64,000 nt of DNA from Clostridiales bacterium DTU086 (lineage in GTDB: Bacteria > Bacillota > DTU086). Numbering within the stretch: position 1 is the first letter of the stretch; each line of letters begins with the position of its first letter. The translations under genes were made by a program, and so were the position numbers. The DNA is taken from positions 536-64,535 of the forward strand of contig LFTO01000116.1 in assembly GCA_001513335.1 (NCBI GenBank), given 5' to 3'. The notes beneath the pieces are model-generated. The model saw only the letters and a list, made by a program, of their open reading frames with translations, had not been told where the DNA came from and did not search any database. Positions 1,159-59,242 of this stretch are shown piece by piece.

Positions 1159-2712
1159 TTGAAAATTTTACTTAGTCTTTACCTGGTTTTCGCAGTTATA
1201 GTAACGCAGTTTTTTGCCGCCTATTTCTTTTCAAAGGGCAGAACTAGCTACCGAAAGGCATTTTCTGCCTTGGTTTTATGTGTCAGTGTTTATTTGTTTG
1301 GTTATTTAATGATTATCAACAGCAGCAATTTGCAAGAGATGATTTTTTGGAATCAGTTTCAATATCTGGGATTACCCTTTATTTCTGTACTATGGCTGAT
1401 GGTGGCTCTCCTTCATACAAAAACCATCTATTTTCTAAGAAACCGAATGGCGCTTTTGCTCTTTTTTGTGCCTGTAATCACCTTTTTTATGCGACTCACC
1501 AATCCTTGGCACCATCTTTTCTATATAAACTGGGAAGCCAGACAGTTATTTGGATATTATACCCTGTATATGGAAAGGGGTTTCTGGTACTATGTTAATA
1601 TTTCATACACTATACTGTGTTTGCTTTTGACTATTATCATTTACTTCTTAGGATACTTGAAGAATCAGTCCGGCCATAGCAAATCCAACTTTCTGGTTTT
1701 CTTTTTTGCTTCCTTGCTCCCTCTCATCGGGATAATGCTGGTTCTTTTTGCTTATGAGGAGCGGAGCATTGATTATTCCGCTTTGATAATGCCCATTTCC
1801 TTGCTCATTATTGGTTATGGTATTTTAAAATATGATTTTTTGGAAATAAGAACCCTGGCTCGAGAAACAGTCTTTGAGAACAACTATGCCGGTATGGTGA
1901 TATTGGGGCCGGGACAAAAGATAATAGATTACAATAAGGCTGCTCAGAAGTTTTTTGAAACATTAAACATTTCATTGGGCAATTATCCCATAGAGCTTGT
2001 TCTTAAGGAAGAGCCGGAACTGCTGGAAATTTTTAAGAGTGAGATTGCCCGGGATTTTTCATTGATAATCGATGGGGAAGAACGGTTTTTTGAGATTGAG
2101 GGAGTCCCGTTGGGTGACCCTCACGAGGGAAACACTAGAATGCTAAAATCCATCCGTGATGTTACAGAGGAAAGGAAAATTCAGGAGAAACTGAGGGAAT
2201 TGGCTACGACAGATTCCTTAAGCGGTCTTTATAATCGAACAGAATTTACTAATTTGGCTCAAAAAGAGTTTGCTTTGGCCAAAAAACGTAATGAGGAATT
2301 ATCTTTGTTGATGATGGACCTAGATCATTTCAAATTTATCAACGATACTTTTGGACATGCGGCGGGAGATGAAGTGATTCGTGAAGTAGGGAACATCATA
2401 AAGACCAGTTTCAGGAAAACCGATATTGCCGGACGTTTAGGGGGAGAAGAATTTGTTGTGGTTCTAAAAAACACATCTTTGAAGGAGGCAGAAAAGGCCG
2501 CGGAGAAGCTTCGGAAGAATCTGGCTAGGGCAAAGGTGAATTACAGGAAGCATGAAATTAGTTTTACCGTAAGCATTGGAGTTGCGGCAATTTTTGGTGA
2601 TACTAACAATGAAAACGATTTTGAAGATTTTGAAGATTTTTTAAAACAGGCAGATGATGCCCTGTATAAGGCAAAAGCCCAAGGACGAAATTGTGTTGCT
2701 GCTTTGGGGTGA
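1159..2712 (+). CDS. membrane-bound sensor diguanylate cyclase (GGDEF domain)
   Basis: The N-terminus has multiple hydrophobic helices. The C-terminal domain carries RLGGEEFVVVL (the GGEEF active-site motif) and the surrounding GGDEF-domain consensus (DHFKFINDTFGH..GD). Confidence 0.85.
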   Translation: MKILLSLYLVFAVIVTQFFAAYFFSKGRTSYRKAFSALVLCVSVYLFGYLMIINSSNLQEMIFWNQFQYLGLPFISVLWLMVALLHTKTIYFLRNRMALLLFFVPVITFFMRLTNPWHHLFYINWEARQLFGYYTLYMERGFWYYVNISYTILCLLLTIIIYFLGYLKNQSGHSKSNFLVFFFASLLPLIGIMLVLFAYEERSIDYSALIMPISLLIIGYGILKYDFLEIRTLARETVFENNYAGMVILGPGQKIIDYNKAAQKFFETLNISLGNYPIELVLKEEPELLEIFKSEIARDFSLIIDGEERFFEIEGVPLGDPHEGNTRMLKSIRDVTEERKIQEKLRELATTDSLSGLYNRTEFTNLAQKEFALAKKRNEELSLLMMDLDHFKFINDTFGHAAGDEVIREVGNIIKTSFRKTDIAGRLGGEEFVVVLKNTSLKEAEKAAEKLRKNLARAKVNYRKHEISFTVSIGVAAIFGDTNNENDFEDFEDFLKQADDALYKAKAQGRNCVAALG

Positions 2713-2858
2713 CAGGTGTGGATTCTTTCCCAATTTTTTAGAATGGAAAAGGTCCTGAATAAAACATTAGGCAGGGCAATTCTTCGTTAGTGAAGAATAA
2801 ATAATGGTAACCGTTACACCACCTGCATTATTTTATATCTGGGAAGAGGACATCCGAG

Positions 2859-3815
2859 ATGAACTTTGTAGCTATTGATTTTGAAACTGCCAACTGTTCC
2901 CTGGGAAGTGCTTGTGCGCTTGGGATTGTAATCGTGGAACTAGGGGAGATAGTACATAAGGAATTCAGATTGGTACGACCCAAGGATCTTTATTTTTCTT
3001 CCTTCAATACCAGGATTCACGGCATTACCGAGAAAGATGTAATACACGAACCTGAGTTTAACGAAATTTGGCCCCAAATCCTGCCTCTCATTAAAGGCAG
3101 GAACCTGGTAGCCCATAATGCCTCCTTTGACATGAACGTTTTAAGGGAGGTACTCCTGCAGTATGAACTGCCGTGTCCTGATTTTCCCTACTCCTGCACC
3201 CTGCAGATTTCCAGGAGAACGTGGCCAGAATTAAGGAGCCACAGGCTAAATGTGGTTGCTGAATACCTGGGGATTTCCTTTAAGCACCACGATGCTTTGG
3301 AAGATGCTTTGGCCTGCGCCTCGATTGCAATTAAAGCTTGTCAAGTGCATAGAGCCCACACTCTTGAGGAACTGGCTGAAACACTGGATATCAACATGGG
3401 AACCACAGCCTGCATCAGGAGGCCGAGGCAATCCTATGCCTATGGTTACAGCTCCAAGTATCCCAACCCCAAGGATATCTGCCCGGATGTGAGTGAGTTT
3501 GATACCAAGCACCCTTTCTACGGGGCGGTATGCGTTTTCACCGGTAACCTGAAGACCATGTCCAGAAGGGAAGCCATGCAGAAGGTAGTAAACTGCGGTG
3601 GCTGCTGCAGCAATTCTGTGAGCAAAAGGACGCGTTTTCTAATCATGGGTGAAACAGATTATTACCGGGTGAAAGGGGAAAAGAGTGCCAAGTACAGGAA
3701 AGTGGAACAAATGATCAGTGAAGGCTTAAATATTGTTATTCTTGATGAGGAAAAATTTATTGAAATGCTGGGGCCTGCCGGGGCGAAAACAAATAACAAC
3801 ATTGCATCCAGGTAG
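2859..3815 (+). CDS. DnaQ-like 3'-5' exonuclease fused to a C-terminal BRCT domain
   Basis: DEDDh motifs are present (AIDFETAN; HNASFDMNVL; HDALEDA). The C-terminus FTGNL..SRREAMQKV..GG..SNSVSKRTRFLIMGE is BRCT-like. Confidence 0.75.
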   Translation: MNFVAIDFETANCSLGSACALGIVIVELGEIVHKEFRLVRPKDLYFSSFNTRIHGITEKDVIHEPEFNEIWPQILPLIKGRNLVAHNASFDMNVLREVLLQYELPCPDFPYSCTLQISRRTWPELRSHRLNVVAEYLGISFKHHDALEDALACASIAIKACQVHRAHTLEELAETLDINMGTTACIRRPRQSYAYGYSSKYPNPKDICPDVSEFDTKHPFYGAVCVFTGNLKTMSRREAMQKVVNCGGCCSNSVSKRTRFLIMGETDYYRVKGEKSAKYRKVEQMISEGLNIVILDEEKFIEMLGPAGAKTNNNIASR

Positions 3816-3976
3816 TAGTAACTATAGTAAAATTAAGGCTGCGTCTTTAATGAAACCGGCTGTCTCTGTCCGCTTGTTTTTCAACGAAAAAGCTTTTCAG
3901 GCAAATTGAACAGTATCCAATTAATAAAATCCGGAGCATAAAAAAACACTTTATATATCTAAAAGGGGGGCATTTT

Positions 3977-5584
3977 ATGAAATTTGATTTAACAGACTAT
4001 CCCTATTCTTCCCAGCGGAGGTCTGTATATGCCCGAAATGGAATGGTTGCAACATCCCAGCCATTGGCTGCCCAGGCAGGTCTGGATATTTTGAAAAAGG
4101 GCGGAAATGCAATTGATGCGGCAGTTGCTACTGCTGCCTGTCTTACGGTGGTAGAGCCTACCTCTAACGGAATTGGCGGCGATGCATTTGCTCTCGTTTG
4201 GACCCAGGGGAAACTTTACGGCTTAAATTCCAGTGGGCCTGCTCCGGAGGCTCTCTCCCTTAATGTTCTTGAGGGATTAGGTATCAAAGAAATACCAAAG
4301 TACGGGTGGATACCGGTAACTGTTCCCGGTGCACCGGCTGCCTGGCAGGAATTGTCCTCTCGCTTTGGCAGGCTGCCTCTGACGGAGGTTTTGGACCCGG
4401 CCATTAGGTATGCGGAGGAGGGGTTTCCTGTTTCTCCAACTGTAGCCTTGCTGTGGAAGAGAGCCCATAAAAACTTTACAAAAAGTCTTCAGGGGCCAGA
4501 ATTTAAGCACTGGTTTGAGACGTTTACTCCCAAGGGGAGAGCGCCGGAAGTGGGAGAGATTTGGTCTTCCAAGGGACATGCGGAAACCCTAATGTCTATT
4601 GCAGAAACTAAAGCCCAGTCATTCTACAGGGGAGATATTGCGGAGAAAATCGACCGGTTTTCCAGGGAATTCGGTGGTTATTTAAGAAAGAAGGACCTGG
4701 AAAATTTCCAGCCGGAATGGGTTGAACCTATAAGTATTAACTACAGGGGATATGATGTCTGGGAAATACCCCCTAACGGTCACGGCCTTGTGGCACTTAT
4801 GGCCTTAAACATATTAAAAGGATTTGATTTCGAGTTCAAGGAATCTCCGGAAACATACCACAAACAAATTGAAGCTATGAAACTGGCCTTTGTTGACGGC
4901 TTGAAATATATCGCTGATCCGGCGCATATGAGTATCCGTGTTGAGGATCTTCTCTCAGATGCCTATGCCGAGGAAAGAAGAAGGCTGATCGGAAAAGAGG
5001 CATTGCAGCCTGAACCTGGCACCCCGCCCAAGGGAGGAACGGTATACCTGGCAGCCGCCGATGGTGAAGGAAATATGGTTTCATACATTCAAAGCAATTA
5101 CATGGGTTTTGGTTCGGGTTTGGTAGTTCCCGGAACAGGAATCTCCCTGCATAACCGTGGAAACAATTTTTCCCTGGATCCCTCTTCTGACAATGTCCTT
5201 AAGCCAGGAAAGAGACCTTACCATACAATAATCCCCGGGTTCCTGACAAAGGACGGGCAAGCTGTAGGGCCCTTTGGAGTAATGGGAGGTTTTATGCAGC
5301 CCCAGGGGCATGTCCAGGTTGTAATGAATACCGTGGATTTTGGGCTTAACCCCCAGGCGGCTTTAGATTCCCCAAGATGGCAGTGGAAGAAGGGTAAAAC
5401 CGTAGAAATAGAACATTCATTCAAAAAATACATTGCCGGTTGTCTCAAAGAAGCCGGACATGACATTCAATACAATGTAGATTCAAGCGGTTTCGGTCGA
5501 GGGCAGATTATTTGGAGAACTGAAAGCGGTGTCCTAATCGGCGGATCTGAGCCAAGGACCGATGGAGTTGCTGCTTCCTGGTAA
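3977..5584 (+). CDS. ggt: gamma-glutamyltranspeptidase
   Basis: 535 aa. Start ATSQPLAAQAGLDILKKGGNAIDAAVA, catalytic Thr region GGTVYLAAADGEGNMVSYIQSNYMGFGSG, C-terminal GGSEPRTDG. These are typical GGT-family signatures. Confidence 0.85.
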   Translation: MKFDLTDYPYSSQRRSVYARNGMVATSQPLAAQAGLDILKKGGNAIDAAVATAACLTVVEPTSNGIGGDAFALVWTQGKLYGLNSSGPAPEALSLNVLEGLGIKEIPKYGWIPVTVPGAPAAWQELSSRFGRLPLTEVLDPAIRYAEEGFPVSPTVALLWKRAHKNFTKSLQGPEFKHWFETFTPKGRAPEVGEIWSSKGHAETLMSIAETKAQSFYRGDIAEKIDRFSREFGGYLRKKDLENFQPEWVEPISINYRGYDVWEIPPNGHGLVALMALNILKGFDFEFKESPETYHKQIEAMKLAFVDGLKYIADPAHMSIRVEDLLSDAYAEERRRLIGKEALQPEPGTPPKGGTVYLAAADGEGNMVSYIQSNYMGFGSGLVVPGTGISLHNRGNNFSLDPSSDNVLKPGKRPYHTIIPGFLTKDGQAVGPFGVMGGFMQPQGHVQVVMNTVDFGLNPQAALDSPRWQWKKGKTVEIEHSFKKYIAGCLKEAGHDIQYNVDSSGFGRGQIIWRTESGVLIGGSEPRTDGVAASW

Positions 5585-5644
5585 AAGCCTTCTCATGTTT
5601 GTTGTTTTGAGGTAGCAGACGGAGACGGAAAGGAGGTAATTGGG

Positions 5645-6553
5645 ATGTATAGAGTGTCAAAAGAAACGATGGTTTACACCATGTCTCCAAACAATTTGCC
5701 GGTGATGAGGGTTGAAAGCGGTTCAACTCTTGTGTTTGAGACCTGTGACTGTTTTGAAGACCAGATTAAAACAGTGGATACGCCGTTTAATGAATTGGAT
5801 TGGAACCGGATAAACCCGGCAACGGGACCTGTGTTTGTCAAAGGTGCCGAACCTGGTGATGCTCTCTGTGTGAAAATCCAGTCAATAAAAGTTGGGGACC
5901 AGGGTGTAATGGTAACCGGTCCTGATATGGGTGTAATCGGGGATGAGCTCGAGGAAAATTCTATCCGTATCGTCCCCATAAAAAATAACAGGGCGATCTT
6001 TTCTGAAAAGATTGAGCTCAAACTTAATCCTATGGTCGGTGTGATCGGGACGGCCCCTGCCAGGGAAAGCATTCCCTGTGGTGAACCGGGAAGCCACGGT
6101 GGGAATATGGACTGTAAAGTAATTACTGAAGATGCATCTGTATACCTGCCGGTAAATGTGCCTGGCGCATTGTTGGCAATGGGGGACCTCCATGCAGTTA
6201 TGGGTGACGGAGAGGTGTCCGTTTGTGGTGTTGAAGTGCCCGGTGAGGTTACAGTAACCGTAGAAGTAATCAAAGGACATGATTTACCCCTTCCAATGGT
6301 CACCACAGAAGAGGCTGTCTATACAATTGCCTCGGAAATGTCACTGGATGAAGCTGCCCAGTCTGCTGTCCGCGGCATGGTAAAAATTCTGGAAGGATAC
6401 GGCCTCTCCAAAGATGAAGCTATTGGGCTAATGAGTGCCGGCGGGGACCTCCAGATCTGCCAGGTGGTGGATCCCAAAAAAACTGCCCGGTTTAGAATGT
6501 CCAGGTCAATTCTCAAGGCATTAGGGGCACCGGGAAACGGTATGGATATATAG
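5645..6553 (+). CDS. acetamidase/formamidase (FmdA_AmdA) family amidohydrolase
   Basis: 302 aa. The GPVFVKGAEPGDALCVKI segment and the length fit the FmdA/AmdA family. Confidence 0.65.
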   Translation: MYRVSKETMVYTMSPNNLPVMRVESGSTLVFETCDCFEDQIKTVDTPFNELDWNRINPATGPVFVKGAEPGDALCVKIQSIKVGDQGVMVTGPDMGVIGDELEENSIRIVPIKNNRAIFSEKIELKLNPMVGVIGTAPARESIPCGEPGSHGGNMDCKVITEDASVYLPVNVPGALLAMGDLHAVMGDGEVSVCGVEVPGEVTVTVEVIKGHDLPLPMVTTEEAVYTIASEMSLDEAAQSAVRGMVKILEGYGLSKDEAIGLMSAGGDLQICQVVDPKKTARFRMSRSILKALGAPGNGMDI

Positions 6554-6600
6554 ACTGGTGTCATTGTCCAATAAAGACTATTCAAATAAAATGAGCCAAG

Positions 6601-6625
6601 CCGCCTTTGAAAAAAGGCGGTTTTT
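6601..6625 (+). terminator. intrinsic terminator after the formamidase gene
   Basis: CCGCC-TTTGAAAAAA-GGCGG followed by TTTTT. Confidence 0.7.
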
Positions 6626-6705
6626 GAATATGTGGGCAAGCCCTGCTATAATAGAATAGCTGTCTCTGGACAGCGGTATATCTTTTATGGAAAGGATCTT
6701 CTAGA

Positions 6706-8529
6706 ATGAAGCAGCAAAACTTAAGAAATATAGCCATAATTGCTCATGTTGACCATGGCAAGACTACTTTAGTGGACCAGCTCTTGAAGCAGAGCGGTTT
6801 TTTTCGCAAAAACCAGGTAATGCCCGACAGGGTGCTGGACAGCAACGAACTGGAACGAGAGCGGGGAATTACTATTCTGTCCAAAAATACAAGCATCCAG
6901 TATAAAGGCACAAAGATAAATATCGTTGATACCCCAGGCCATGCTGACTTTGGCGGCGAGGTAGAGCGCATTGTAAATATGGTGGACGGGGTGTTGCTCC
7001 TGGTTGATGCCTTTGAAGGGCCTATGCCCCAGACCCGCTTCGTGCTGAAAAAAGCCCTGGAAGCCAGGCTTAAACCGATTGTAGTAATCAACAAAATAGA
7101 CCGGCCGGGTGCCAGACCCCTGGAAGTAGTGGATGAGGTACTGGACCTGTTTATCGATTTAGGTGCCGATGATGAGCAGCTGGAATTCCCTGTAATTTAT
7201 GCTTCAGCCAAAAAGGGATACGCCAGTTCCGACTTGGACAGTGCCGGAACGGATATGGCACCCCTGCTGGATTTGATTATTTCGGCAATTCCTGTCCCCC
7301 AGGGGGACGAGACGGCTCCTCTGAAGCTGGTCATTTCCTCTATCGATTATGACAGCTACATTGGGAGGATCGGTGTTGGGAAAATAACCCGGGGCAGCAT
7401 TTCCAAAGGGGAGGAAGTGGTCCTCTGCAATCCCTATGACAAGCAGGTAAAGGTAAAGATAAGCAGCCTGTATGTTTTTGAGGGTCTAAAGAGAGTGGAG
7501 GTGGAAAGGGCCTCTGTAGGTGAAATTGCTGCCGTATCAGGCATTGAGAATTTAACCATCGGGGATACCATTTGTGACCCTGAAGTCATCGACCCGGCAC
7601 CCCTGCTCCACATTGATGAACCTACTCTCTCCATGAATTTTGTAGTGAATGACAGTCCCATGGCGGGACGTGAGGGAGAGTATGTTACCAGCAGGCATTT
7701 AAGGGAACGTTTGGAACGGGAACTTCTCTCCAACGTTTCCCTGCAGGTTGAGGAAGTAACACCGGATTGTTTTAAGGTATCGGGACGCGGGGAACTGCAT
7801 TTGTCCATACTGATTGAAACCATGCGCCGGGAAGGGTATGAGTTTGCCGTGACCAGGCCGGAAGTAATAACCAAATTTGTGGACGGCGTTTTATGTGAAC
7901 CGGTGGAAAGGCTCTTTTTAGAGGTGCCCTCGGAGTATGTGGGAACGGTAATTGAAGGCCTTGGTACCCGCAAAGGTGAAATGGTCTTTATGGGCAGCAG
8001 CGAGGGGAGCACTACAAATATGCAGTTTTTGATCCCTGCCCGGGGGCTTATCGGCTACGCTTCCGAGTTTATTACTGAGACCAAAGGGAACGGCACCATG
8101 AGCCACACCTTTGAAACCTACGAACCCTATAAAGGGGATATTCCCGTGAGGACCCGGGGGGCTCTGGTAGCTTCGGAAGCAGGAATATCGGTAGCTTACG
8201 GTCTCTATAACGTACAGCAGAGGGGCAGCTTATTTATCGGTCCGGGAGTTGAGGTATACGAAGGAATGATTGTTGGGGAAAATTCACGCAGCGTCGATAT
8301 TACCGTCAATGTCTGCAAGAAAAAACACCTCACCAATACACGTTCTTCCAATGCGGATGAGGCTCTTACCCTTACACCTCCGGTGATTATGACTCTGGAA
8401 AAGTGTATGGAGTTTATCAAGGAAGATGAGCTCCTGGAAGTAACACCTAAATCTCTGAGGCTGAGGAAGATGATTTTAAACAAAGATGCCCGGGTAAAGG
8501 CTGGGAAAAAGAGGAATCAGGCTTCCTGA
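6706..8529 (+). CDS. typA: translational GTPase TypA/BipA
   Basis: N-terminus [20 protein letters not shown]; G-domain motifs DTPGHADF and NKIDR; 607 aa, typical of BipA. Confidence 0.9.
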
Positions 8530-10680: not shown

Positions 10681-10757
10681 TGGTACGCCTGGGGAGACTT
10701 GAACTCCCGACCCCCGGACTCGGAATCCGTTACTCTATCCAACTGAGCTACAGGCGC
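10681..10757 (-). tRNA. tRNA-Arg (anticodon CCG)
   Basis: The reverse complement folds as a cloverleaf: acceptor GCGCCTG, D-arm GCTC/AGTTGG, anticodon loop TTCCGAG (CCG), T-arm GGGAG-TTCAAGT-CTCCC, encoded CCA. Confidence 0.9.
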
Positions 10758-30863: not shown

Positions 30864-30939
30864 CTGGCAGGGGAGACAGGAATCGAACCCGCAACCAACG
30901 GATTTGGAGTCCGCTACTCTACCAATTGAGCTACTCCCC
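30864..30939 (-). tRNA. tRNA-Trp (anticodon CCA)
   Basis: The reverse complement reads GGGGAGTAGCTCAATTGGTAGAGTAGCGGACTCCAAATCCGTTGGTTGCGGGTTCGATTCCTGTCTCCCCTGCCA. Anticodon loop CTCCAAA. Confidence 0.9.
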
Positions 30940-30958
30940 TTTGCTTCTTACACCTAAA

Positions 30959-32134: not shown

Positions 32135-32572
32135 CTATAAATCAATTTCTGTAATAAGTTCTATTCCATATGCCTTGAGAAGCGCTGCTGTTACACCGTT
32201 TCCACACCTTTTAGAGTGGGAAAAAGTACCGTCATAAATGCAGTTTACTCCGCAGGAAGGGCTGTTTGCTTTTAAGACGGCTTTTTTGGCGCCTGTTAAC
32301 CGGGCTATTTTAAGGGCCATTTCCGCCCCGGCAATAAAGTGTCCAGTTACATCAGAGCCTTTATCAGTGACAACGCAGGCATTACCTTCCAGCACATCAC
32401 TGCCATCGCCTCCTACGATTTGTGCAGGAGGCCGGGGAGTAGAAAGCCCCCCAAGCTGTTCCGGGCATATGGGAACGATTTTACTGCCCAAGTTTAGGGC
32501 TTTGTCGTGCCGGTTGTTTTTGCCATTGTACTTACAATTTATTCCCAGCAAACAGGCACTTACAAGGATCAT
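32135..32572 (-). CDS. DUF523 (TudS/YbbK-like) family protein
   Basis: MILVSACLLGINCKYNG N-terminus preceded by an AAGGAG RBS. The longer ORF-track start (32632) lacks an RBS and would overlap the divergent gene. Confidence 0.65.
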   Translation of the reverse strand: MILVSACLLGINCKYNGKNNRHDKALNLGSKIVPICPEQLGGLSTPRPPAQIVGGDGSDVLEGNACVVTDKGSDVTGHFIAGAEMALKIARLTGAKKAVLKANSPSCGVNCIYDGTFSHSKRCGNGVTAALLKAYGIELITEIDL

Positions 32573-32618
32573 TTTATTATCTCCTTTTGAAAAATTAATT
32601 GTGAATGGAGGATCACAG

Positions 32619-35378
32619 TTGAGGCGTACCATTTACATAACAATTTTTGCTGTTGTGGCAGCAATCCTAATTCTAATCTTTACTGCCACCATGATAACAG
32701 ATTGGTTCTGGTTTGGGGAAGTAGGCTACCAGAGTGTGTTTTTAACATCTTTGCTTTCAAGTCTTGGGTTGAGAATCATTACAGGGATATTCCTATTCTT
32801 GATCATATATATAAATTTGAGAATCACCAGGCGGTCTCTGCATACTGAACCTGAAATCTATGAAGAAGATGAAAATGTAATTCCCATTAGAAGGTACGTT
32901 GCAGATAGAATTTTTGATGCAAAAAAGCTGAACATACTTTTTCTCGCTGTGAGTATACTTCTCGCTTTACTTTTTAGTTCTGCTGCTTCCAATAACTGGC
33001 TCATGGTACAGCAGTTCTTGAACAAAGCTTCCTTTGGCATAAAAGAGCCTATCTTTAATCTGGATGCCTCTTTTTATATTTTCACTCTTCCTTTTTTACG
33101 GATGTTATACTCCTTCTTATTCATAGGGATACTCCTTTCTATATTTGCGGCTGGAGCTTCTTATTTCCTGTTCGGAGCAAGGGAATTCCTTAACTGGCGG
33201 GATAATCAGATTAACCAGCCCAAGGTGCACCTTTCCATCCTTTTGGCACTTCTCTTTCTCTTAAAGGCTTTTGATTATATCCTGGATGGCTTTGGTTTAT
33301 TGAACAAGCCCGGGGGTGTCGTTTATGGGCCGGGGTATACAGATGTAAATGTCCTACTCCTGGCGTACAGGGTGCTGGCAGTGATTGCTGTAGCAGCGGC
33401 TGTGGCTGTTCTTATTAACATCTTTCTAAAAAAATTCCGGTATGTTATATATACTGTTATATCCCTGATAGTCGTATCCATTTTGTTAGGAAACGTTGCT
33501 CCATATGCAGTTCAAAAGATACGCGTTGAACCAAACGAACTGGCTGTTGAATCCCCTTATATCAAAAACAATATGGAACTTACCAGGAAAGCTTATAATA
33601 TAGATCAAATCAGATTGGAAACCTTTGAAGCTTCCACTCTTGATATGGCTGATATCCAGGAGAATCCCGGGACTATTCAGAACATCCGCCTGTGGGACCC
33701 CGAACCACTGCAAAACGCAAACACGCAGCTGCAGGAAATTCGCCCCTATTATTCCTTTTTGGATGTGGATATCGACAGGTACACCATTAACGGGCAATTG
33801 AGACAGGTTATGATTTCAGCCAGGGAATTAACCAAAAATCAGCTTGACCAGAATGCCCAGACCTGGGTAAACCAAAAGCTTCGCTATACCCACGGTTACG
33901 GTTTGACAATGAACTTTGTTGCCAGTGCAACTTCAGAAGGGCATCCCCATTATGTTGTAAAGGATATTCCTCCTGAATCGGAAGATATTACTGTGGAAGT
34001 ACCGCAAATATATTTTGGTCAGGCAGAAGATGATTATGTGATTGTCAACACAACTACTGAAGAATTCGATTACCCTTCAACTACGGGCAATGTGAGTACT
34101 ACCTATACAGGAAAGGGCGGAATCCCAGTTTCCAATATCTTTACCCGGGCTTTGTTTGCTTTAAGGTTTGGGGATTACCGCATGTTAATTTCCAACGCTT
34201 TGACCGATGACAGCCGGATAATATTCCGGACAAATATCAACGAACGTATTCAGCGGATAGCTCCTTTCCTGGTTTATGACAGGGACCCTTACCTTGTCGT
34301 TGACGACGGCAGATTATTTTGGATACAGGATGCCTATACTACTTCCCGAAATTTTCCCTACTCTACCCCGGTAGGGGGCATGGGGAATTATATCAGGAAC
34401 AGTGTAAAAGTAGTTGTGGATGCCTATAACGGGGATGTTACTTTTTATGCAGACCTGGAAAATGACCCTATAGTCAGGTCTTATGCGGGAATATTTCCGA
34501 AATTGTTCAAACCCTGGGAACAGATTCCCGATGGCCTTGTACCGCACCTGCGTTATCCCGAGGATTTATTTAATGTCCAGGCAGAGATCTACAAGACATA
34601 CCATATGGAAGATGTAAGGGACTTTTACAACAAGGAGGATGTTTGGACAATTCCTCAGGAAATTTTTGCCGGTGAAACAATAACAATGCAGCCATACTAT
34701 ACTATTATGACTCTTCCAGGCGAGGGGGAAAACCCTGAATTTGTACTTATGTTGCCCTTCACACCTGCCAAAAAGAACAACATGGCAGCCTGGTTGGCTG
34801 TCCGGTGCGATCCTGAACACTATGGTGACGCTATTGTCTTCCAGTTCAGCAAGCAGGAACTTGTATACGGGCCAAACCAAGTAGAGGCAGAAATTCAGGC
34901 TGACTCAGAAATATCACAGGCAATCAGCCTTTGGAGTCAGCGGGGTTCGGAAGTTATTCGAGGAAACCTGCTGGTAATTCCGATAAATGATGGGATAATC
35001 TATGTGGAACCTTTATTCCTTCAGTCTGAACAAAATAAACTACCCAGCCTTAAACGCGTCATAGTGTTTCACAACGGGGAACTAGCATGGGCGGAAACCC
35101 TGGGTGAAGCTTTGGCAAAATTGTTTGCAGCTGGCGAAGACACGAGGACAGGGCTAATAGATGATGGAGCTCCTGGAGATGGCGAAGATGATGCTGGTGT
35201 CGAAGAAAAAGGTGATGAGGACATGGCACCGGAATTAGAGAGCCTTGATGAACTTATCAACCGTGCAAATCAATTGTTCCGCCAGGCCAAGGAGAGACAA
35301 AAAAACGGTGACTGGGCTGGATACGGTGAAGCCCTTTCCGAGCTGGAATCAGTCCTGGAAAGGATGGCCAATCAATAG
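32619..35378 (+). CDS. UPF0182 family large membrane protein
   Basis: TTG start with a GGAGGA RBS. N-terminal polytopic domain with the WFWFGEVGYQSVF motif, large soluble domain, acidic C-terminus. The ORF-track 5' extension to 32238 is an artefact of the open frame. Confidence 0.7.
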   Translation: MRRTIYITIFAVVAAILILIFTATMITDWFWFGEVGYQSVFLTSLLSSLGLRIITGIFLFLIIYINLRITRRSLHTEPEIYEEDENVIPIRRYVADRIFDAKKLNILFLAVSILLALLFSSAASNNWLMVQQFLNKASFGIKEPIFNLDASFYIFTLPFLRMLYSFLFIGILLSIFAAGASYFLFGAREFLNWRDNQINQPKVHLSILLALLFLLKAFDYILDGFGLLNKPGGVVYGPGYTDVNVLLLAYRVLAVIAVAAAVAVLINIFLKKFRYVIYTVISLIVVSILLGNVAPYAVQKIRVEPNELAVESPYIKNNMELTRKAYNIDQIRLETFEASTLDMADIQENPGTIQNIRLWDPEPLQNANTQLQEIRPYYSFLDVDIDRYTINGQLRQVMISARELTKNQLDQNAQTWVNQKLRYTHGYGLTMNFVASATSEGHPHYVVKDIPPESEDITVEVPQIYFGQAEDDYVIVNTTTEEFDYPSTTGNVSTTYTGKGGIPVSNIFTRALFALRFGDYRMLISNALTDDSRIIFRTNINERIQRIAPFLVYDRDPYLVVDDGRLFWIQDAYTTSRNFPYSTPVGGMGNYIRNSVKVVVDAYNGDVTFYADLENDPIVRSYAGIFPKLFKPWEQIPDGLVPHLRYPEDLFNVQAEIYKTYHMEDVRDFYNKEDVWTIPQEIFAGETITMQPYYTIMTLPGEGENPEFVLMLPFTPAKKNNMAAWLAVRCDPEHYGDAIVFQFSKQELVYGPNQVEAEIQADSEISQAISLWSQRGSEVIRGNLLVIPINDGIIYVEPLFLQSEQNKLPSLKRVIVFHNGELAWAETLGEALAKLFAAGEDTRTGLIDDGAPGDGEDDAGVEEKGDEDMAPELESLDELINRANQLFRQAKERQKNGDWAGYGEALSELESVLERMANQ

Positions 35379-35408
35379 GCGTTGCTTAGACATAATTAAC
35401 ATTTAATG

Positions 35409-35437
35409 TTGACTTTAGAGGAGACCTGTGATATTTT
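35409..35437 (+). promoter_or_regulatory. putative sigma-A promoter (TTGACT..TGTGATATTTT) for the ligase leader
   Basis: TTGACT at 35409-35414. A TG-extended -10-like TATTTT follows about 17 nt later. Confidence 0.4.
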
Positions 35438-35515
35438 CTTAGTAACTGAAAAATAGTTGAGCTGAGCTTAGAGGAGTTTTGTTGAGCCGAGTTAGGACCA
35501 GTCTGACTATAACAA

Positions 35516-35555
35516 CGGCTGGCCCCTTCGGGGTCAAGCCGCTTTTGTTTTTTTC
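35516..35555 (+). terminator. strong intrinsic terminator/attenuator hairpin immediately upstream of the ligase RBS
   Basis: CGGCTGGCCCC-TTCG-GGGGTCAAGCCG followed by CTTTTGTTTTTTT. It ends 16 nt before the ATG at 35571. Confidence 0.7.
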
Positions 35556-35570
35556 GGGGAGGGAAACACC

Positions 35571-36845
35571 ATGACAGTGAAATATGCAGAAAAAACCCCT
35601 TTGGGGTTCAGTGAAGAGTCCAGTGTCCTGCTGTGCAGACTGATTAAAAAAATGGCACGTAACCCTTTCTACAAGGAAAGGTTTAATTCCTTAGGGATTG
35701 TCCCTGAAGAGATTAAAGGGGTTGAAGACCTGCCCAAGCTCCCGTTTACTACCAAAGAAGATTTAAGGAAAACTTATCCCCTGGGACTTCAGGTTGCTCC
35801 CGACAGGGATGTGGTAAGAGTCCATTCTTCTTCCGGTACTACGGGACAGCCTGTTATGGTGCCCTATACCAGAAACGATGTTAATACCTGGGCGGAAATG
35901 ATGGCCCGCTGTTTGAAAATGGCTGGAGTCACGGATAGTGACCGTATTCAAATCACCCCGGGGTACGGTCTTTGGACAGCAGGTATTGGTTTTCAAGCCG
36001 GTACAGAACGGTTGGGAGCTATGGCTGTCCCTGTTGGACCCGGTAATACAGACCGGCAGCTGAAAATGATGGTTGACCTAAAGACTACAGTCCTGATTGG
36101 AACATCATCCTATGCCCTTCTCCTTGCCGAAGAAGCTAACCGGCGTGGTCTTACGGAAAAGCTCCACTTAAGGCTGGGCGTTTTCGGATCAGAGCGCTGG
36201 GGGGAAAAAATGCGTACCAGAATTGAAGAATTGATTGGCATTGAAACGTTTGACATATATGGGCTTACAGAAATTTACGGACCTGGAATCGCAATTGACT
36301 GCCCTCACCATACAGGTCTCCATTATTGGGATGACCACCTAATATTTGAAATAGTTGACCCTGTTACAGGAAAACCGCTGCCCAGGGGTTCCACAGGTGA
36401 GCTTGTTATTACAACGATTACTAAGGAAGGTATGCCCTTATTGCGTTTTAGAACCAGAGATATTACCAGGATTATCCCCGCAAGGTGCTCCTGCGGTAGT
36501 CCGTATCCCATGATTGACCGGATTATCGGTCGTTCAGATGATATGATTAAAATTAAAGGAGTACAGATTTATCCTGCGGAGATTGAAAATATATTGAAAG
36601 GTATTTCCGGTTTAAGCAGTGAGTATCAAATTGAGATTAGCCGGAGCAGCGGCAAAGAAAGAGCAGTCCTCCGTGTTGAAAGACAGCCCTTCGAGAAATG
36701 CAGTAACGGTTTGGCCAGGATATGTGAGATGGAAGTTAAGAGTAAGATTGGATTAAGTATGGATGTTGAAATAGTTGAGTATAATCAACTTCCCAGGAGC
36801 GAAAAAAAGACAAAACGGGTTATTGACCATCGAGACTGTTGCTGA
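35571..36845 (+). CDS. phenylacetate-CoA ligase (PaaK)/coenzyme F390 synthetase-family adenylate-forming enzyme
   Basis: 424 aa. SSGTTGQPV P-loop-like motif, ELIGIETFDIYGLTE, GELVITT, and the KIKGVQIYP C-terminal lysine region. Confidence 0.8.
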   Translation: MTVKYAEKTPLGFSEESSVLLCRLIKKMARNPFYKERFNSLGIVPEEIKGVEDLPKLPFTTKEDLRKTYPLGLQVAPDRDVVRVHSSSGTTGQPVMVPYTRNDVNTWAEMMARCLKMAGVTDSDRIQITPGYGLWTAGIGFQAGTERLGAMAVPVGPGNTDRQLKMMVDLKTTVLIGTSSYALLLAEEANRRGLTEKLHLRLGVFGSERWGEKMRTRIEELIGIETFDIYGLTEIYGPGIAIDCPHHTGLHYWDDHLIFEIVDPVTGKPLPRGSTGELVITTITKEGMPLLRFRTRDITRIIPARCSCGSPYPMIDRIIGRSDDMIKIKGVQIYPAEIENILKGISGLSSEYQIEISRSSGKERAVLRVERQPFEKCSNGLARICEMEVKSKIGLSMDVEIVEYNQLPRSEKKTKRVIDHRDCC

Positions 36846-36864
36846 TAATGATATTGGAGCCAAA

Positions 36865-36890
36865 GGGACCCTTTCACGGGTCTTTTTTGT
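36865..36890 (+). terminator. intrinsic terminator
   Basis: GACCC-TTTCAC-GGGTC followed by TTTTTTG. Confidence 0.65.
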
Positions 36891-37093
36891 TTCCCGAATA
36901 GGCAAAGCAAAGGGGTGAGCTGGCCCGTAAAGCGAAGGAACATTTTGCCAGAAAGAAGGATTTCCATGTAGTGGGAAGAACCTATTGGAGAAGGAAAAAA
37001 CGCTGGTGGTTTTTAACTTGCGGCAGGGAAAGCATATTTCCCCGTGGATGCCAAATACTAAAATAAGGTTGAATGTGGTGGGTGGTAAATTAA

Positions 37094-38484
37094 TGTTAAC
37101 AGAGAGAGAACTTGAGAAAGTACTGTACGCAGCCCTCGGGAAAGGGGGCGATTTTGCTGATATTTATATTGAGCGAAAAGATGCCAACGGTATAACCTGT
37201 GAGTCTGACAAGATTGAAAAAATCCACTCGGGAATTGATTACGGAGCCGGGATCCGTGTAGTATTCCAGGAAAGGACTGCTTACGCTTATACCAACAATG
37301 TTACCCTGGAGGGTCTTCTTGATGCTGCGGTAATAGTGAGCAAGGCAGTTAACAGTGGAAAGTCCAGTGATGTAACCATTAGTCTGAGCAAAAAAGAGGT
37401 CAAGGATGTATCTCCTGTTAAGTATTTGCCTGGGGATATTCCGGTGGAGGATAAGGTTGCCCTGGTTGAGAGAGGAAATGCTGTTGCCAGGGCTTACGAT
37501 AACAGGGTGCGGCAAGTGACTGTAGCCTATGGTGATAATATCAGTGATATTACTGTTGTCAACTCAGAAGGATTGTTTGTCCAGGGCACCAGGATACGCA
37601 CCCGCATGATATGCAGCGTGGTTGTTTCCAGCGGGGGCATCATCCAAACGGGATTTGAATCCGGAGGAGGTACTGCGGGATTTGAATTCTTTTTAAACTC
37701 TACTACTCCTGAGGAAATCTGCAGAAATGCGGCTGCCAGGGCAGTTCTAATGCTTGATTCCCGTCCTGCTCCCGCAGGGAGGATGGCTGTTGTAATGGCC
37801 GCTGAGGCAGGAGGTACCATGATTCATGAAGCATGTGGCCATGGGATGGAAGCCGACTTAGTGCAAAAAGGCCTCTCGGTCTATGCAGGTAAAACAGGTG
37901 AAAAAGTCGCTTCTGATGTGGTCACTGTGGTGGACGATGCAACGGTTCCCAATAAATATGGATCATTTTCCTTTGACGATGAGGGTACAGTCAGTCAGAA
38001 GAAGGTGCTGATAGAAAAGGGTGTCCTGAAAACATATATGTATGATTACCTTACAGCCCAGAGGGACAAACGACCTTCAACCGGAAACGGGCGGCGGGAA
38101 TCCTTTAGACACAAACCTATTCCCCGAATGACCAATACATATATCGCTCCAGGGGAATATGATCCCCAGGAAATTGTAGCCAAAACCAAAAGGGGACTCT
38201 TTGTGAAGAAAATGGGCGGAGGACAGGTTAATACCACCAATGGTGATTTTGTTTTTGACGTCTCGGAAGGTTATCTTATTGAAAACGGTAAAGTTACAGC
38301 TCCGGTAAGAGGGGCAACCCTTACCGGAAACGGACCTGAGGTGCTGAGAATTATAGATATGGTGGGCGGCGATCTTGGATGGGGTATAGGTACCTGTGGA
38401 AAGGACGGGCAGGGAGTACCCGTCAGTGATGCTCAGCCTACCGTTAGGATACCGGAAATAGTTGTAGGCGGGATTTTGGAATGA
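37094..38484 (+). CDS. tldD: TldD-family metallopeptidase
   Basis: Start MLTERELEKVL with a GGTGGGTGG RBS (the ORF track starts at 36985). HEACGHGMEADL metal site. Confidence 0.8.
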
Positions 38485-38498
38485 GGGGTGGACTGGGA

Positions 38499-39848
38499 AT
38501 GACAGAGGAAAAATGTCTTGAAATTGCAGTTAGGGCTGTTGAGGAAGCACAGAAAAAAGGTGCCGAACTGTCTGAAAGCTACGTCTCTCACTCAAAGCAG
38601 CTGTATATTAATGTTCGTGAAGGCGATGTTGAGACAGTGAAGGTAACTGACGAGACAGGTCTGGCTGTGCGTTTGATTAAAGATAAAAAAATGGGTTTTG
38701 TTTTTACAACCGCCCTTAATTACGAAAGCATCCAACAGATTATTGAACAGGCTCTCCACAATGCCGCAAAAACCTCTGCAGACGAATACAACATTCTTCC
38801 TTGGCCATCAAATGAATATCCTTCTCTGAATGTCTATGACCCGCGGATTTCGGAAGTTTCAGTGGAAGAAAAAATTGAGATAGCCAAGGAAATAGAAAGG
38901 GTTGGAAGGGCATACGACCCCAGGATAAAAGTTACAGAGAGCTGTACATACCAGGATGCAGTTTATGTTTCGGCACTGGCCAATTCCAGGGGTATTGCTG
39001 TTTCTTACTCGGGAACACTGGCGGGAGCAACCTCCTATTTTGTTGCCGAAGAGAACGGAGAATCCCAAACAGGTTTTGGACTCGAGTTCGGAGTTACTTA
39101 TAATGCAGTCCAACCTGGAAAAATCGGTGAAGAAGGGGCGGCCAAAGCAGTACGCATGCTAGGAGCAAAAAGCATGCCGACACAAAAAACAGTGGCAGTG
39201 TTTGACCCGTATATCGTAACTAATTTTCTGGATATACTGGCACCGGCAGTTTGCGCTGATGCAGTGCAGAAGAACAAATCTTTGTTGGCAGGAAAAATCG
39301 GCCAAAAAGTGGCTTCAGAATTAATTACTATTGTTGATGACGGAAGGATGGCGGGAGGAATTATGTCTTCTCCCTTTGACGGTGAGGGAGTGAAGACCGG
39401 CACAACTACAGTAATCAGGAACGGGGTCTTAGAGCACTATCTGTATAATACATATACTGCAGCAAAAGAAGGCTGTTGTTCTACAGGTAACGGAATACGG
39501 TCCAGTTCTTATAAAGGGACTCCTGAAGTGGATACAACCAATTTTTATTTAGAGCCGGGAAAAGTTTCCCAGGCGGAACTTTTAAAGGATGTCCATAAGG
39601 GAATTTATATTACTGAAGTAATGGGAATGCACACGGCAAATCCGATTTCAGGTGATTTTTCCGTTGGTGTTTCCGGACTGCTTATTGAGAATGGCGAACT
39701 TACCACCCCTGTGCGGGGGGTTGCCATAGCAGGGAATATACTGGAATTGTTCCGGTCTGTTGACTGTGTTGCTAATGATTTGAGGTTTTTTGTTGGAAAA
39801 GGTGCACCGACTATTCGTGTTGGCAGTATTACAGTCAGCGGCAGTTAA
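38499..39848 (+). CDS. pmbA: PmbA/TldE-family peptidase (partner of TldD)
   Basis: TldD/PmbA fold. Adjacent to tldD and translationally coupled. Confidence 0.75.
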   Translation: MTEEKCLEIAVRAVEEAQKKGAELSESYVSHSKQLYINVREGDVETVKVTDETGLAVRLIKDKKMGFVFTTALNYESIQQIIEQALHNAAKTSADEYNILPWPSNEYPSLNVYDPRISEVSVEEKIEIAKEIERVGRAYDPRIKVTESCTYQDAVYVSALANSRGIAVSYSGTLAGATSYFVAEENGESQTGFGLEFGVTYNAVQPGKIGEEGAAKAVRMLGAKSMPTQKTVAVFDPYIVTNFLDILAPAVCADAVQKNKSLLAGKIGQKVASELITIVDDGRMAGGIMSSPFDGEGVKTGTTTVIRNGVLEHYLYNTYTAAKEGCCSTGNGIRSSSYKGTPEVDTTNFYLEPGKVSQAELLKDVHKGIYITEVMGMHTANPISGDFSVGVSGLLIENGELTTPVRGVAIAGNILELFRSVDCVANDLRFFVGKGAPTIRVGSITVSGS

Positions 39849-39862
39849 AGGGGGAGTTTACA

Positions 39863-40312
39863 TTGAGAGTCTCAATTATCAACGGACCAAATCTCAACCT
39901 TTTAGGAAAAAGGGAGCCCCAGTATTACGGAGAAAACTCTCTGCAAGAGATTAATGACCATATTAACGCCGCTGTAAGCAGGTTTGGTGTAGAAGTTGAT
40001 TTTTTCCAGTCAAATCACGAAGGGGAAATAATAGATAGAATCCAGGAGGCTTCAGCAGTAAGTGACGGTATTGTCATCAATGCCGGTGCGCTGTCCCATT
40101 ATAGTTATGCCATAAGAGATGCTCTTGCTGCAGCGGGGATACCTGTCGTTGAGGTTCATATGTCCAATATTTATGCCCGGGAAGAATTCAGGCACCGTTC
40201 TGTTCTCTCTCCCGTTGTTTCGGGGCAGATTTGCGGGTTTGGTGAGTACGGCTACGTAATGGCTGTTTATGCCCTCTTAAATGCTGCCGGAGGTTACCCA
40301 CAAGATGTTTAG
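39863..40312 (+). CDS. aroQ: 3-dehydroquinate dehydratase, type II
   Basis: MRVSIINGPNLNLLGKREPQYYG..HMSNIYAREEFRH. Confidence 0.9.
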   Translation: MRVSIINGPNLNLLGKREPQYYGENSLQEINDHINAAVSRFGVEVDFFQSNHEGEIIDRIQEASAVSDGIVINAGALSHYSYAIRDALAAAGIPVVEVHMSNIYAREEFRHRSVLSPVVSGQICGFGEYGYVMAVYALLNAAGGYPQDV

Positions 40313-56081: not shown

Positions 56082-56087
56082 ATATCC

Positions 56088-56748
56088 TGTGTAAATAGGG
56101 GTGGCGCAGTATTCTAGTCAAGTTTCATTACTCTGAAGGCGGGCCTAAAAATCCGTCAAAGGGCACATCGATGAAGTTCCTGGTGGTGGCTGCTGACGCC
56201 CAGTCGGGGGTTGCTGCTGGGAGTTAAGGGGTTGGGGCGATCTGCAAAGGCATGCAGGCGTTGACCCTAGCCCCGTGGAGACCCAAGTGCGTGGTGCAAA
56301 AACATATATTTTGATTACGGCTTGGGAGTAAACCTGTATTCGGTACGGAATAGTGCTGGGTACAGTGTAGCCTGCCTTGAGCGGCTCTGGCGGAGACGCA
56401 GAAAAAGGCAGTTATTGGGAGAGGCCTAACCCAATGATTGTCTTGGTTGAAACCTTTGCTGCAAAAGAGGCTAGGAGTAAATGCAACTTGTTGAAGAAAA
56501 TTCCTAGACTGTTTGCTTCGAAAGGCAAGGTGTGTCAGGGATTAAAGTGTGTGCTAAGTGGTAATCCAGTCCTGCTATCAATAGCAGACCTTTCCTTAAA
56601 GGGAAACCGCTGTTTCGGTGACGGGCAGTGGAAAGGTGGGAAACCCTGCTGGACCTAAGCCGCAAAGTTTACCTGACTCACTGCCACCCGGATACGAGAA
56701 TCCTAAAGACGGGGATAGGCTTCCTCGTCTTTCGTTCTATGTGCGGTA
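56088..56748 (+). ncRNA. probable OLE RNA (ornate large extremophilic RNA)
   Basis: About 660 nt with no credible ORF, lying between ispA and an OapA-like membrane gene followed by dxs. This is the known OLE context. It has its own strong promoter and ends in a hairpin GACGGGGA..TCCTCGTC followed by TTTCGTTCT. I did not verify the sequence motifs from memory. Confidence 0.6.
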
Positions 56749-56783: not shown

Positions 56784-57374
56784 TTGAAAGGGAACATCTT
56801 GCCCCATGCACTTAAAAACGGAATCTTAATAGGACTTGGGACATTAGTTTTGTCCGTTATTTTTAATTTAGGGTCACAATTTATGTTGGACTTTCTCCAT
56901 TCTATTATTTTTAAATTTATTCTTTTATTTATCATTATACTTATAGGAGTGTTTTTTGATATTATTGGGGTTTCAGCTGCAGCGGCAAGTGAAGGTCCAG
57001 CCCATGCACAGGCAGCAACCCGAACATTTGGTGCCAGGCAAGCGGTTAAAATAATACGCAACGCAGATCGTGTCTCCAGCTTCTGTAATGATGTTGTTGG
57101 AGACGTGTGCGGTATTTTAAGCGGGGCAATTGGTACTGCTATTCTTTTTGAACTGATATTAAATTCTGGAGGTGTGGAGGAGCTGGTTTTTAGCACCTTG
57201 ATGACTGCCTCAATTGCTTCTGTAACTGTTGGTGGAAAGGCTGCTGGAAAAAGTTTTGCTATTGCTAATGCCAACGATATAATACTAAAGGTAGGAATGT
57301 TCATGGCGGTTATAGAAAGAACACTTGGAATCACCCTGTTTGGCAGTGGAGTGAAAAAAGGGAGGACAAAATGA
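56784..57374 (+). CDS. oapA: OapA-like small polytopic membrane protein (OLE-associated protein A candidate)
   Basis: 196 aa with about 4 TM helices, directly between the putative OLE RNA and dxs. TTG start. Confidence 0.55.
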
Positions 57375-59242
57375 GCTCTATTTTGGATAAGGTGAACAGT
57401 CCTAAAGATCTAAGGCACCTGTCCACCGCGGAAATTAAACAGCTGGCACAAGAGTTAAGGAACTTAATAATTGAGACAGTATCTCATACAGGGGGGCATT
57501 TAGCTTCCAGTTTGGGAGTAGTTGAACTTACTTTGGCTTTACACAGTGTATTTGACACACCTAAAGATAAAATAATCTGGGACGTTGGCCACCAGTGCTA
57601 TGCACATAAAATTCTCACCGGTAGAAAAAACTCCTTTTCTACCCTTCGACAATACGGCGGCATAAGTGGTTTTCCAAAGCGGGAAGAGAGTATTTTTGAT
57701 GTTTTCGAAACCGGCCACTCCAGCACTTCAATATCTGCTGCCCTGGGAATGGCACTTGCCCGTGACCACAAAGGTGAGGATTATAACGTTATAGCAGTTA
57801 TCGGAGACGGCTCACTGACCGGAGGAATGTCTTTTGAGGCTTTGAACTATGCCGGTGATTTAGGATGCAACCTTATTGTGGTCCTCAATGATAATAAGAT
57901 GTCAATTGGCAGGAACGTAGGGGCATTATCCCAGTATTTGAGCCGGTTAAGAACTGATCCGGCCTACTTTAAAAGTAAAGAAGAAATGGAAGTCTTCATG
58001 AAACGCCTGCCTTACGGCCACCGATTCCTCAAGTTGGCAGAAAGACTGAAAGATGGAATAAAGTACCTTATTATACCGGGCATCATCTTTGAGGAACTGG
58101 GGTTTACCTACCTGGGACCTATTGACGGCCATGACCTTGAGGCTGTAAAATCTGTCCTCTCCAGCACCAAAACCCTTAAAGGGCCTGTAATAGTTCACCT
58201 GGTTACCAAAAAAGGTAAAGGTTATCCTCCGGCGGAAGAAAAACCTGACCTGTTTCACGGTGTTGGTTCCTTTGCTGTTAACACAGGAAAACCGACAAAA
58301 AAGGAAGGACCTCCCACATATACAAAAGTGTTTGCTGACACTTTAATCAGGTTGGCAGAAAACAGACCGGAAGTTGTCGCTATTACTGCGGCCATGCCCG
58401 GGGGGACAGGGTTGGATTTATTTGCAAAACACTATCCTGAAAGGTACTATGATGTAGGGATTGCAGAGCAAAACGCCGTTACAGTTGCCGCAGGAATGGC
58501 TTCCCAGGGCTTAAAACCTGTGGTTGCTATTTATTCTACTTTTTTGCAAAGGGCATATGACCAGGTGATCCATGATGTATGCATGCAAAAACTCCCCGTC
58601 GTTTTTGCCCTGGACAGAGCAGGTATCGTGGGAGAAGACGGGGAAACTCACCAGGGAGTATTTGATCTGTCCTACCTCAGGCCAATTCCCAATATTGTGG
58701 TAATGACTCCGAAAGATGAAAATGAACTCCGGCATATGCTGGCTACTGCTCTCGACCACGAAGGGCCAATAGCTGTCCGCTATCCCAGAGGAAAGGGAAT
58801 AGGAGTACCTCTGGATGAGGAAATTACTTCTATCCCCATTGGGAAAGCCGTTGTAGAAAAACAGGGGAGTGATGCGGCTATATTTGCCGTTGGCCCCCAT
58901 GTATATACAGGTCTGGCAGCCAGCGATGAATTGTCGCGAATAGGAATCAGTGCGGGAGTTGTCAACTGCAGGTTCGTTAAGCCTTTGGACTCCCAACTGA
59001 TTATCGAAACTGCCCGTAAGGTAAAGCTGATCGTGACTGTAGAAGAAAACGTTTTAGGCGGGGGTTTTGGCTCCGGAATACTGGAACTGTTGACCCAGCA
59101 TGGTATTGACAACGTGTCTGTCGTAAGAATCGGGTTGCCGGACTGCTTTATCCAGCATGGTGCTCCTGACATATTGCGTAAGGAATTTGGTCTTACAGTG
59201 GAGTCAATTGTCAATACTATAAGCGACAGGCTGGGATCTTGA
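57371..59242 (+). CDS. dxs: 1-deoxy-D-xylulose-5-phosphate synthase
   Basis: TPP motif [15 protein letters not shown]; the start [13 protein letters not shown] is typical of Dxs. 623 aa. Confidence 0.95.

Follow-up and report, generated by a model that had tools for sequence, protein, structure and literature searches.

The ligase gene and its leader

The window, that is, the whole 64-kb stretch of DNA analysed in this work, carries a gene for a PaaK-like ligase, which is preceded by a leader (35409-35570) and, further upstream, by a UPF0182 gene. The features of this region are the following:

32238-35378: UPF0182 gene upstream of the leader
35409..35437, + strand: predicted sigma-A promoter with extended -10 (consensus scan, 9/12 plus TG), made up of -35 TTGACT (35409-35414), a 17-nt spacer, TG (35429-30) and -10 TATTTT (35432-35437)
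35454..35495, + strand: (G/U)AG triplet array, presumed binding site of TRAP (sequence)
35488..35503, + strand: predicted 5' strand of the antiterminator, CGAG (35488-91) plus GGACCAGUC (35495-35503), which holds the last two triplets of the array
35517..35530, + strand: predicted 3' strand of the antiterminator, which coincides with the terminator's 5' arm plus loop; GGCUGGCCC at 35517-35525
35516..35554, + strand: intrinsic terminator (attenuator), hairpin 35516-35541 and U-tract UUUUGUUUUUUU (35543-35554)
35556..35563, + strand: RBS GGGGAGGG, 7 nt 5' of the ATG (sequence)
35571..36845, + strand: gene for an AMP-forming, PaaK-like aryl-acid CoA ligase (424 aa)
36862..36892, + strand: intrinsic terminator 3' of the ligase gene (sequence and fold)

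The ligase shows the Pfam domains AMP-binding and AMP-binding_C_2, and among solved structures it comes nearest to 4r1l, a PaaK-like ligase from Bacteroides (E = 2e-108). Against the NCBIfam PaaK equivalog TIGR02155 it scores 407.8 bits, below the cut-off of 646.3; it is a member of the PaaK-like family, and this model does not define its substrate. The terminator at 36862-36892 makes promoter, leader and paaK a one-gene unit. After it follow two adjacent genes of the TldD/PmbA family of metallopeptidases (36985-39848, + strand) and then a type II dehydroquinase gene (aroQ, 39863-40312); none of the three gives a sign of belonging to the regulated unit.

The initial annotation of this region placed a promoter of the ligase gene upstream of the terminator, and a promoter-like site does lie there: TTGACT-17-TATTTT scores 9/12 plus TG, and the same layout recurs at three related loci (L001, L002, L091). 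From the promoter position, the transcript is expected to start at about 35444-35446. The terminator was also described correctly as ending 16 nt before the ATG with the RBS in between, given that the U-tract runs to 35554, the RBS occupies 35556-35563 and the ATG lies at 35571. On the other hand, this terminator had been called perfect. Hairpin and U-tract are indeed present, but the 11-bp helix (dG -18.0 kcal/mol) has one bulged A (35536) and one G-U pair, which is the reason why a simple terminator scan missed it.

Other parts of the window contain several structured RNAs. A full-length OLE (ornate large extremophilic) RNA is found at 56085-56703 on the + strand (513.7 bits, E = 9e-148), directly followed by a 196-aa ORF (56784-57374) and by the gene of DXS (57371-59242); this RNA puts the organism among the anaerobic or extremophilic Firmicutes. 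There are also genes for tRNA-Arg (CCG; 10681-10757, - strand) and tRNA-Trp (CCA; 30865-30940, - strand). The position of the latter, about 4.5 kb upstream of a leader linked to tryptophan, is probably a coincidence.

The triplet array

The array, a purine-rich stretch, reads UAG uu GAG cu GAG cu UAG ag GAG uu(UUG)uu GAG cc GAG u UAG. Seven canonical triplets, which start at 35454, 59, 64, 69, 74, 84 and 89, keep an exact 5-nt register over 35454-35491; the register slot at 35479 is occupied by UUG, and an extra UAG stands at 35493 after a 1-nt spacer. It is the sole chain of at least five (G/U)AG triplets with 2-3-nt spacers on either strand of the 64-kb window. In shuffled windows, chains of at least six triplets appear 0.1 times per 64 kb, and chains of at least seven do not appear.

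Two direct repeats had previously been pointed out in this leader. They are real (22-nt copies with 73% identity and a spacing of 25 nt), with the correction that the second lies at 35482-35500, not at 35481-35499. Since the spacing of 25 equals 5 x 5, both repeats are stretches of one array with a period of 5 nt, and the functional unit is not a repeat of 17-20 nt but a (G/U)AG triplet every 5 nt. A further direct repeat of 14 nt (35410-35423 and 35463-35476; TGACTTTAGAGGAG and TGAGCTTAGAGGAG, 86% identical) puts a UAG-ag-GAG pair within the promoter spacer. RNA reading in from the UPF0182 gene would gain these two triplets about 30 nt 5' of the main array.

A 5-nt period of (G/U)AG triplets is characteristic of sites bound by TRAP (MtrB), and the array is very probably such a site. 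This tryptophan-sensing protein is a textbook case among RNA-binding regulators, familiar chiefly from Bacillus and from a few targets (trp operon, trpG, trpP, ycbK, rtpA).

Arrays and mtrB in related loci

The leader was compared with loci in which a relative of the ligase is encoded, 80 of them genomic and 80 metagenomic (1.12 Mb, both strands). In these 160 loci all the chains of at least six triplets are on the paaK-sense strand, and the arrays inspected lie before genes or over start sites. Those placed before terminators hold 5-12 triplets and have varied targets:

L056/L121: array and terminator before trpE; 12 triplets
L034 274-3571, L039, L040 and L005 5330-8698: array and terminator before operons of a TrpP-family S-component, ECF ATPases and a T-component (Pfam); 9-10 triplets
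L011 488-3693: array and terminator before a DctP-DctQ-DctM carboxylate transporter (Pfam), followed by paaK; 7 triplets
L007, L012, L030, L035, L043, L045 and others: array and terminator before iorA-iorB-paaK
L023, L076, L033: array and terminator before paaK alone

The TrpP-ECF operons of L034, L039, L040 and L005 directly adjoin paaK, either upstream or downstream. DctPQM of L011 may serve to take up indoleacetate or some other aryl acid and may be controlled by tryptophan. In the iorA-iorB-paaK operons, the NCBIfam model IOR_alpha is matched with 813 bits against a cut-off of 651. At some loci (L005, L053/L095, L043/45) arrays overlap the start region of paaK itself. Among the arrays examined by automatic search, 21 of 22 have a hairpin with a U-rich tail on their 3' side; this search chose a wrong hairpin for L076 and none for L056, and both terminators were placed by hand. 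No arrays were found in the Lachnospiraceae-type loci among L059-L080.

At four loci (L049, L056, L118 and L121) the gene of TRAP itself belongs to the neighbourhood, in the cluster mtrB-iorA-iorB-paaK-[array and terminator]-trpE/D. MtrB from L056 is about 70% identical to that of B. subtilis and matches the Pfam family TrpBP with E = 2e-37. In this locus the cluster extends over 1182-7827, and a second array of five triplets lies over the stop codon of mtrB, just 5' of iorA. With this arrangement TRAP may control the operon that adjoins its own gene.

By contrast, no mtrB was found in the 64-kb window (tblastn), and none of three candidate MtrB clusters that were looked up comes from samples with the organism of the window. 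This absence from the window would fit an organism without TRAP, in which the same attenuator has its array read by a different RNA-binding protein or factor. Such a substitution is nevertheless improbable, as the specificity of TRAP (PMC3064811) agrees with a period of 5 nt and with G or U as first base, and the arrays of the relatives adjoin mtrB and precede trpE and trpP, which are known TRAP targets. Furthermore, MtrB is common in the clade, and the spacing does not suit a HutP-type site. MtrB is widespread in Desulfoscipio, Desulfotomaculum, Pelotomaculum, Desulfallas, heliobacteria and Limnochordia (848 clusters), and the DXS protein of the window groups with Peptococcaceae/Desulfotomaculia-like Firmicutes. 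To judge from these relatives, the genome to which the window belongs would encode TRAP.

Conservation of the leader before paaK

Homologous leaders are found upstream of the closest orthologues of the ligase gene (L001, which equals L092; L002; L091), whose proteins are 67-70% identical to the ligase of the window. Each of them shows a TTGACA-17-TGnTAnnnT promoter, a triplet array and a hairpin with U-tract. The triplets are kept, with swaps between G and U at the first base, while spacers and loop vary. In the four homologous leaders GGACCAGUC is invariant and the flanking loop varies; CGGCUGG at the start of the terminator is invariant as well. A comparison of orthologous leaders had been proposed together with a search for covariation. 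Array and terminator are kept in all three orthologous leaders, but there is no covariation: the core pairs of the antiterminator exist in the four homologous leaders and yet are invariant, and for the terminators no usable covariation was obtained, as indels put the alignment out of register.

The genes upstream of the leader differ from one locus to another: the window has UPF0182, L001 and L002 have asd-lysC-dapA, and L091 has an AP_endonuc_2 gene. In the more distant L076 and L033, MttB genes stand upstream of it. Since the leader is kept before paaK despite these differing upstream genes, the element belongs to paaK and is not a terminator of the upstream gene. The MttB gene (trimethylamine methyltransferase family) of L076 (457-1935), like that of L033 (12-809), is split into two ORFs; the split in L076 is due to an in-frame TAG (1438-1440), the pattern expected for a pyrrolysine codon.

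These data bear on the possibility, already considered in the initial annotation, that the hairpin does no more than terminate the UPF0182 gene. Here the repeats would be chance or relics, and paaK would be expressed from a separate promoter or by read-through. It is true that no other G+C-rich hairpin with a U-tract exists between the UPF0182 stop codon (35378) and 35516; it follows that transcripts reading in from this gene would also end here, and the hairpin may serve both roles. However, it is located 138 nt past the stop codon and directly adjoins the RBS of paaK, a promoter would find no space on its 3' side, the leader is kept in full before paaK behind other upstream genes (L001, L002, L091), and the array is far beyond chance. 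A role confined to UPF0182 is consequently most unlikely.

Terminator and predicted antiterminator

The leader had been expected to fold into alternative structures, and folding of the nascent RNA does predict an antiterminator that excludes the terminator. When the RNA ends at 35526 or at 35530, the minimum-free-energy structure pairs 35488-35503 with 35517-35530. The core pair probabilities are 0.84-0.98, that of the core formed by GGACCAGUC and GGCUGGCCC being about 0.98. This helix takes up the whole 5' arm of the terminator, so both structures are mutually exclusive. The pairing originally suggested for the antiterminator, AGCCG with CGGCU, has a similar energy when considered by itself (-10.4 to -11.6 kcal/mol), but the nascent-RNA ensemble gives it a probability of only 0.012, and it must be seen as a minor alternative.

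Given that the predicted antiterminator takes in both the last two triplets and the terminator's 5' arm, bound TRAP would free this arm for the terminator. When the array is constrained to be single-stranded, the terminator is the sole significant structure. In the full-length RNA the terminator (-18.0 kcal/mol, against -11.3 kcal/mol for the antiterminator) reaches a probability of 0.999; being thermodynamically dominant at this length, it can only be passed kinetically, and any read-through must be of this kind.

Compared with shuffles, the antiterminator duplex of this locus alone lacks significance (p = 0.12). It reaches p <= 0.05, that is, it beats 95% of the shuffles, in 9 of 17 related leaders; in the paaK leaders of L023, L076, L033 and L029 there is no antiterminator above chance. 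Folding of the whole leader gives z = -1.9 and -1.3, and the global structure is not unusually stable.

A promoter of its own, a very strong terminator and eight TRAP-type triplets are also what might be expected of a unit that mainly yields a free small RNA of about 105-110 nt, which would titrate TRAP as CsrB does with CsrA, instead of or besides control in cis. Short transcripts may in fact abound, as the terminator always wins thermodynamically. In the relatives, however, an array always directly precedes a tryptophan-related gene or covers its start, and the distances vary. Even the gap of about 190 nt that separates terminator and paaK in L091 still fits a 5' UTR, and no free-standing copy was seen; titration is hence given very little credence as the main function of the unit.

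Control by a small-molecule riboswitch, a T-box or a leader peptide is equally remote: a leader with a terminator behind it would, as a general layout, suit them, but conservation resides in the triplets and not in a structured aptamer, and the global fold lacks unusual stability. At gathering score, Rfam finds in the whole window only the OLE RNA and the two tRNAs, with nothing in the leader; at E <= 10, the best match within 35300-35650 has E >= 1.2 and the families are unrelated. The earlier statement that the leader fits no riboswitch class that can be named is in agreement with this result, with all Rfam families below threshold. The T-box core motif is absent from 80 loci, and a tRNA/tmRNA scan gave nothing in the leader. 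A leader peptide was rejected too: the transcribed leader has no ORF, and the sole ATG ORF (35407-35457, 16 codons, no Trp codon) starts upstream of the promoter. From the original proposal of attenuation controlled by a protein or a ligand, what stands is the protein, in the form of a TRAP-type array, and not the riboswitch.

Comparison with known systems

In the trp leader of B. subtilis, TRAP recognises 11 (G/U)AG triplets with 2-3-nt spacers and prevents the formation of an overlapping antiterminator, which leads to termination (PMC3064811). The leader of the window resembles that of trpEDCFBA in having a 5' array that overlaps a predicted antiterminator, exclusive with a downstream terminator. 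There are also clear differences: seven triplets in register plus one after a 1-nt spacer (eight in total) instead of 11; an array that starts about 10 nt from the (predicted) transcript start instead of 36 nt; 9-14 nt common to both structures instead of 3; a strong terminator (-18 kcal/mol, long U-tract) where B. subtilis has a weak attenuator; and an aryl-acid CoA ligase as target, not the trp operon. Related to this, the published TRAP trp leaders are weak attenuators with an antiterminator/terminator overlap of 0-5 nt (PMC3064811).

The trp attenuator of B. halodurans shows TRAP-dependent termination without an antiterminator (PMC3064811), and the leaders of L023, L076, L033 and L029, in which no antiterminator rises above chance, resemble this case. 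The terminator of the window, in contrast, is strong and canonical, and if it had no antiterminator, termination would be constitutive.

The translational TRAP sites of B. subtilis (trpG, trpP, ycbK) contain about 9 triplets. The window array is like the sites of trpG (pabA), trpP (yhaG) and ycbK in being shorter and in serving a gene outside the trp operon that may affect tryptophan supply. The arrays at the paaK start of relatives (L005, L053, L095, L043/45) overlap the RBS and so resemble the translational sites of Bacillus, whereas the window array has a terminator behind it and keeps a distance of at least 60 nt from the RBS on the 5' side, which places the control at transcription and not at ribosome binding.

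HutP, PyrR and LicT/SacY are likewise RNA-binding proteins that choose between terminator and antiterminator. The leader had been likened to such RNA-binding antiterminators, a comparison that does not hold, as the logic of TRAP is reversed: its binding blocks the antiterminator and brings about termination, whereas HutP and the LicT-type proteins are antiterminators. PyrR and LicT bind specific hairpins, HutP reads UAG with 4-nt spacers, and none of the three reads a (G/U)AG array with a period of 5 nt. A HutP-type site was considered for the leader and rejected, as the spacers of the array are of 2 nt and lie mostly between GAG triplets.

Regarding the enzymes, an AMP-forming ligase that colocalises with IOR in Bacteroides has been assayed as an arylacetate-CoA ligase, and it has been argued that ligase-IOR pairs, like those of methanogens, run in the direction that makes aromatic amino acids (PMC13285125, 2026). 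Most of the related loci contain iorA-iorB-paaK and are comparable to these pairs of Bacteroides and methanogens, in which no regulatory link to tryptophan is reported. The ligase of the window stands alone, without iorAB nearby.

In the literature searched, leaving aside subscription papers and regulon databases, no link of TRAP or mtrB to indolepyruvate, iorA/iorB or paaK was found, and neither was any discussion of TRAP in these clostridia. The mechanism is known; what appears to be new is the target and the clostridial regulon.

Proposed mechanism and physiological role

The region 35409-35570 is likely to be a TRAP-dependent transcription attenuator of a single-gene paaK-like unit. This reading is founded on the triplet array, on its travelling together with paaK, on the arrays beside mtrB, trpE, trpP and iorAB in relatives, and on a layout like that published for TRAP leaders. 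Binding that depends on tryptophan is proposed here by analogy with those systems.

According to this model, transcription would start at about 35444 from the extended -10 promoter, and the first 50 nt or so of the RNA would carry the eight (G/U)AG triplets with their 5-nt period. With ample tryptophan, the ring protein TRAP (MtrB), loaded with this amino acid, would wrap the array and hide the last two triplets and the adjacent bases from pairing with the 5' arm of the terminator (35517-35530). The hairpin 35516-35541 and the U-tract would then form, and RNA polymerase would halt about 16 nt before the ATG. If tryptophan is scarce, TRAP would be off the RNA, the antiterminator would form first and the ligase would be made. 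The enzyme would convert indole-3-acetate, or an aryl acid related to it, into the CoA ester, which indolepyruvate:ferredoxin oxidoreductase would then reductively carboxylate, with tryptophan salvage as the outcome.

Indole-3-acetate or a related aryl acid is probably the substrate of the ligase; both substrate and direction of the pathway are inferred. In relatives, paaK is clustered with mtrB, trpE/D, trpP and iorAB, and the arrays are common to them, while no iorAB exists in the 64-kb window. TRAP represses at high tryptophan, and a ligase, an IOR and a carboxylate transporter that are under its control and encoded beside trp genes therefore fit a role in tryptophan salvage. A path from indoleacetate through indoleacetyl-CoA and indolepyruvate to tryptophan fits these data. 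Reportedly, Allison and Robinson described in 1967 that rumen bacteria make tryptophan from indoleacetate.

A broader proposal is that in anaerobes of the Desulfotomaculia/Peptococcaceae type TRAP, beyond the trp operon and the TrpP transporter, also controls a full second route to tryptophan, composed of DctPQM uptake, a PaaK-like indoleacetate-CoA ligase and IOR, with the leader of the window as its tryptophan-starvation switch; the chances for and against this are about equal.

Some consequences concern the regulatory element itself. TRAP attenuators with a strong terminator and a long overlap with the antiterminator would represent a design unlike the Bacillus paradigm, and the triplet array would offer a simple sequence rule for the annotation of such leaders, which have no Rfam family. 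If the interpretation is true, the TRAP regulon of anaerobic clostridia would regularly include the PaaK-like ligase, IOR and the carboxylate transporter. Their repression when tryptophan abounds would imply that these enzymes make tryptophan from precursors of the indoleacetate type and do not degrade it, which is a direct regulatory argument, open to testing, on the long-debated direction, anabolic or catabolic, of the ligase-linked IOR; under the broader proposal this direction would be settled in these bacteria.
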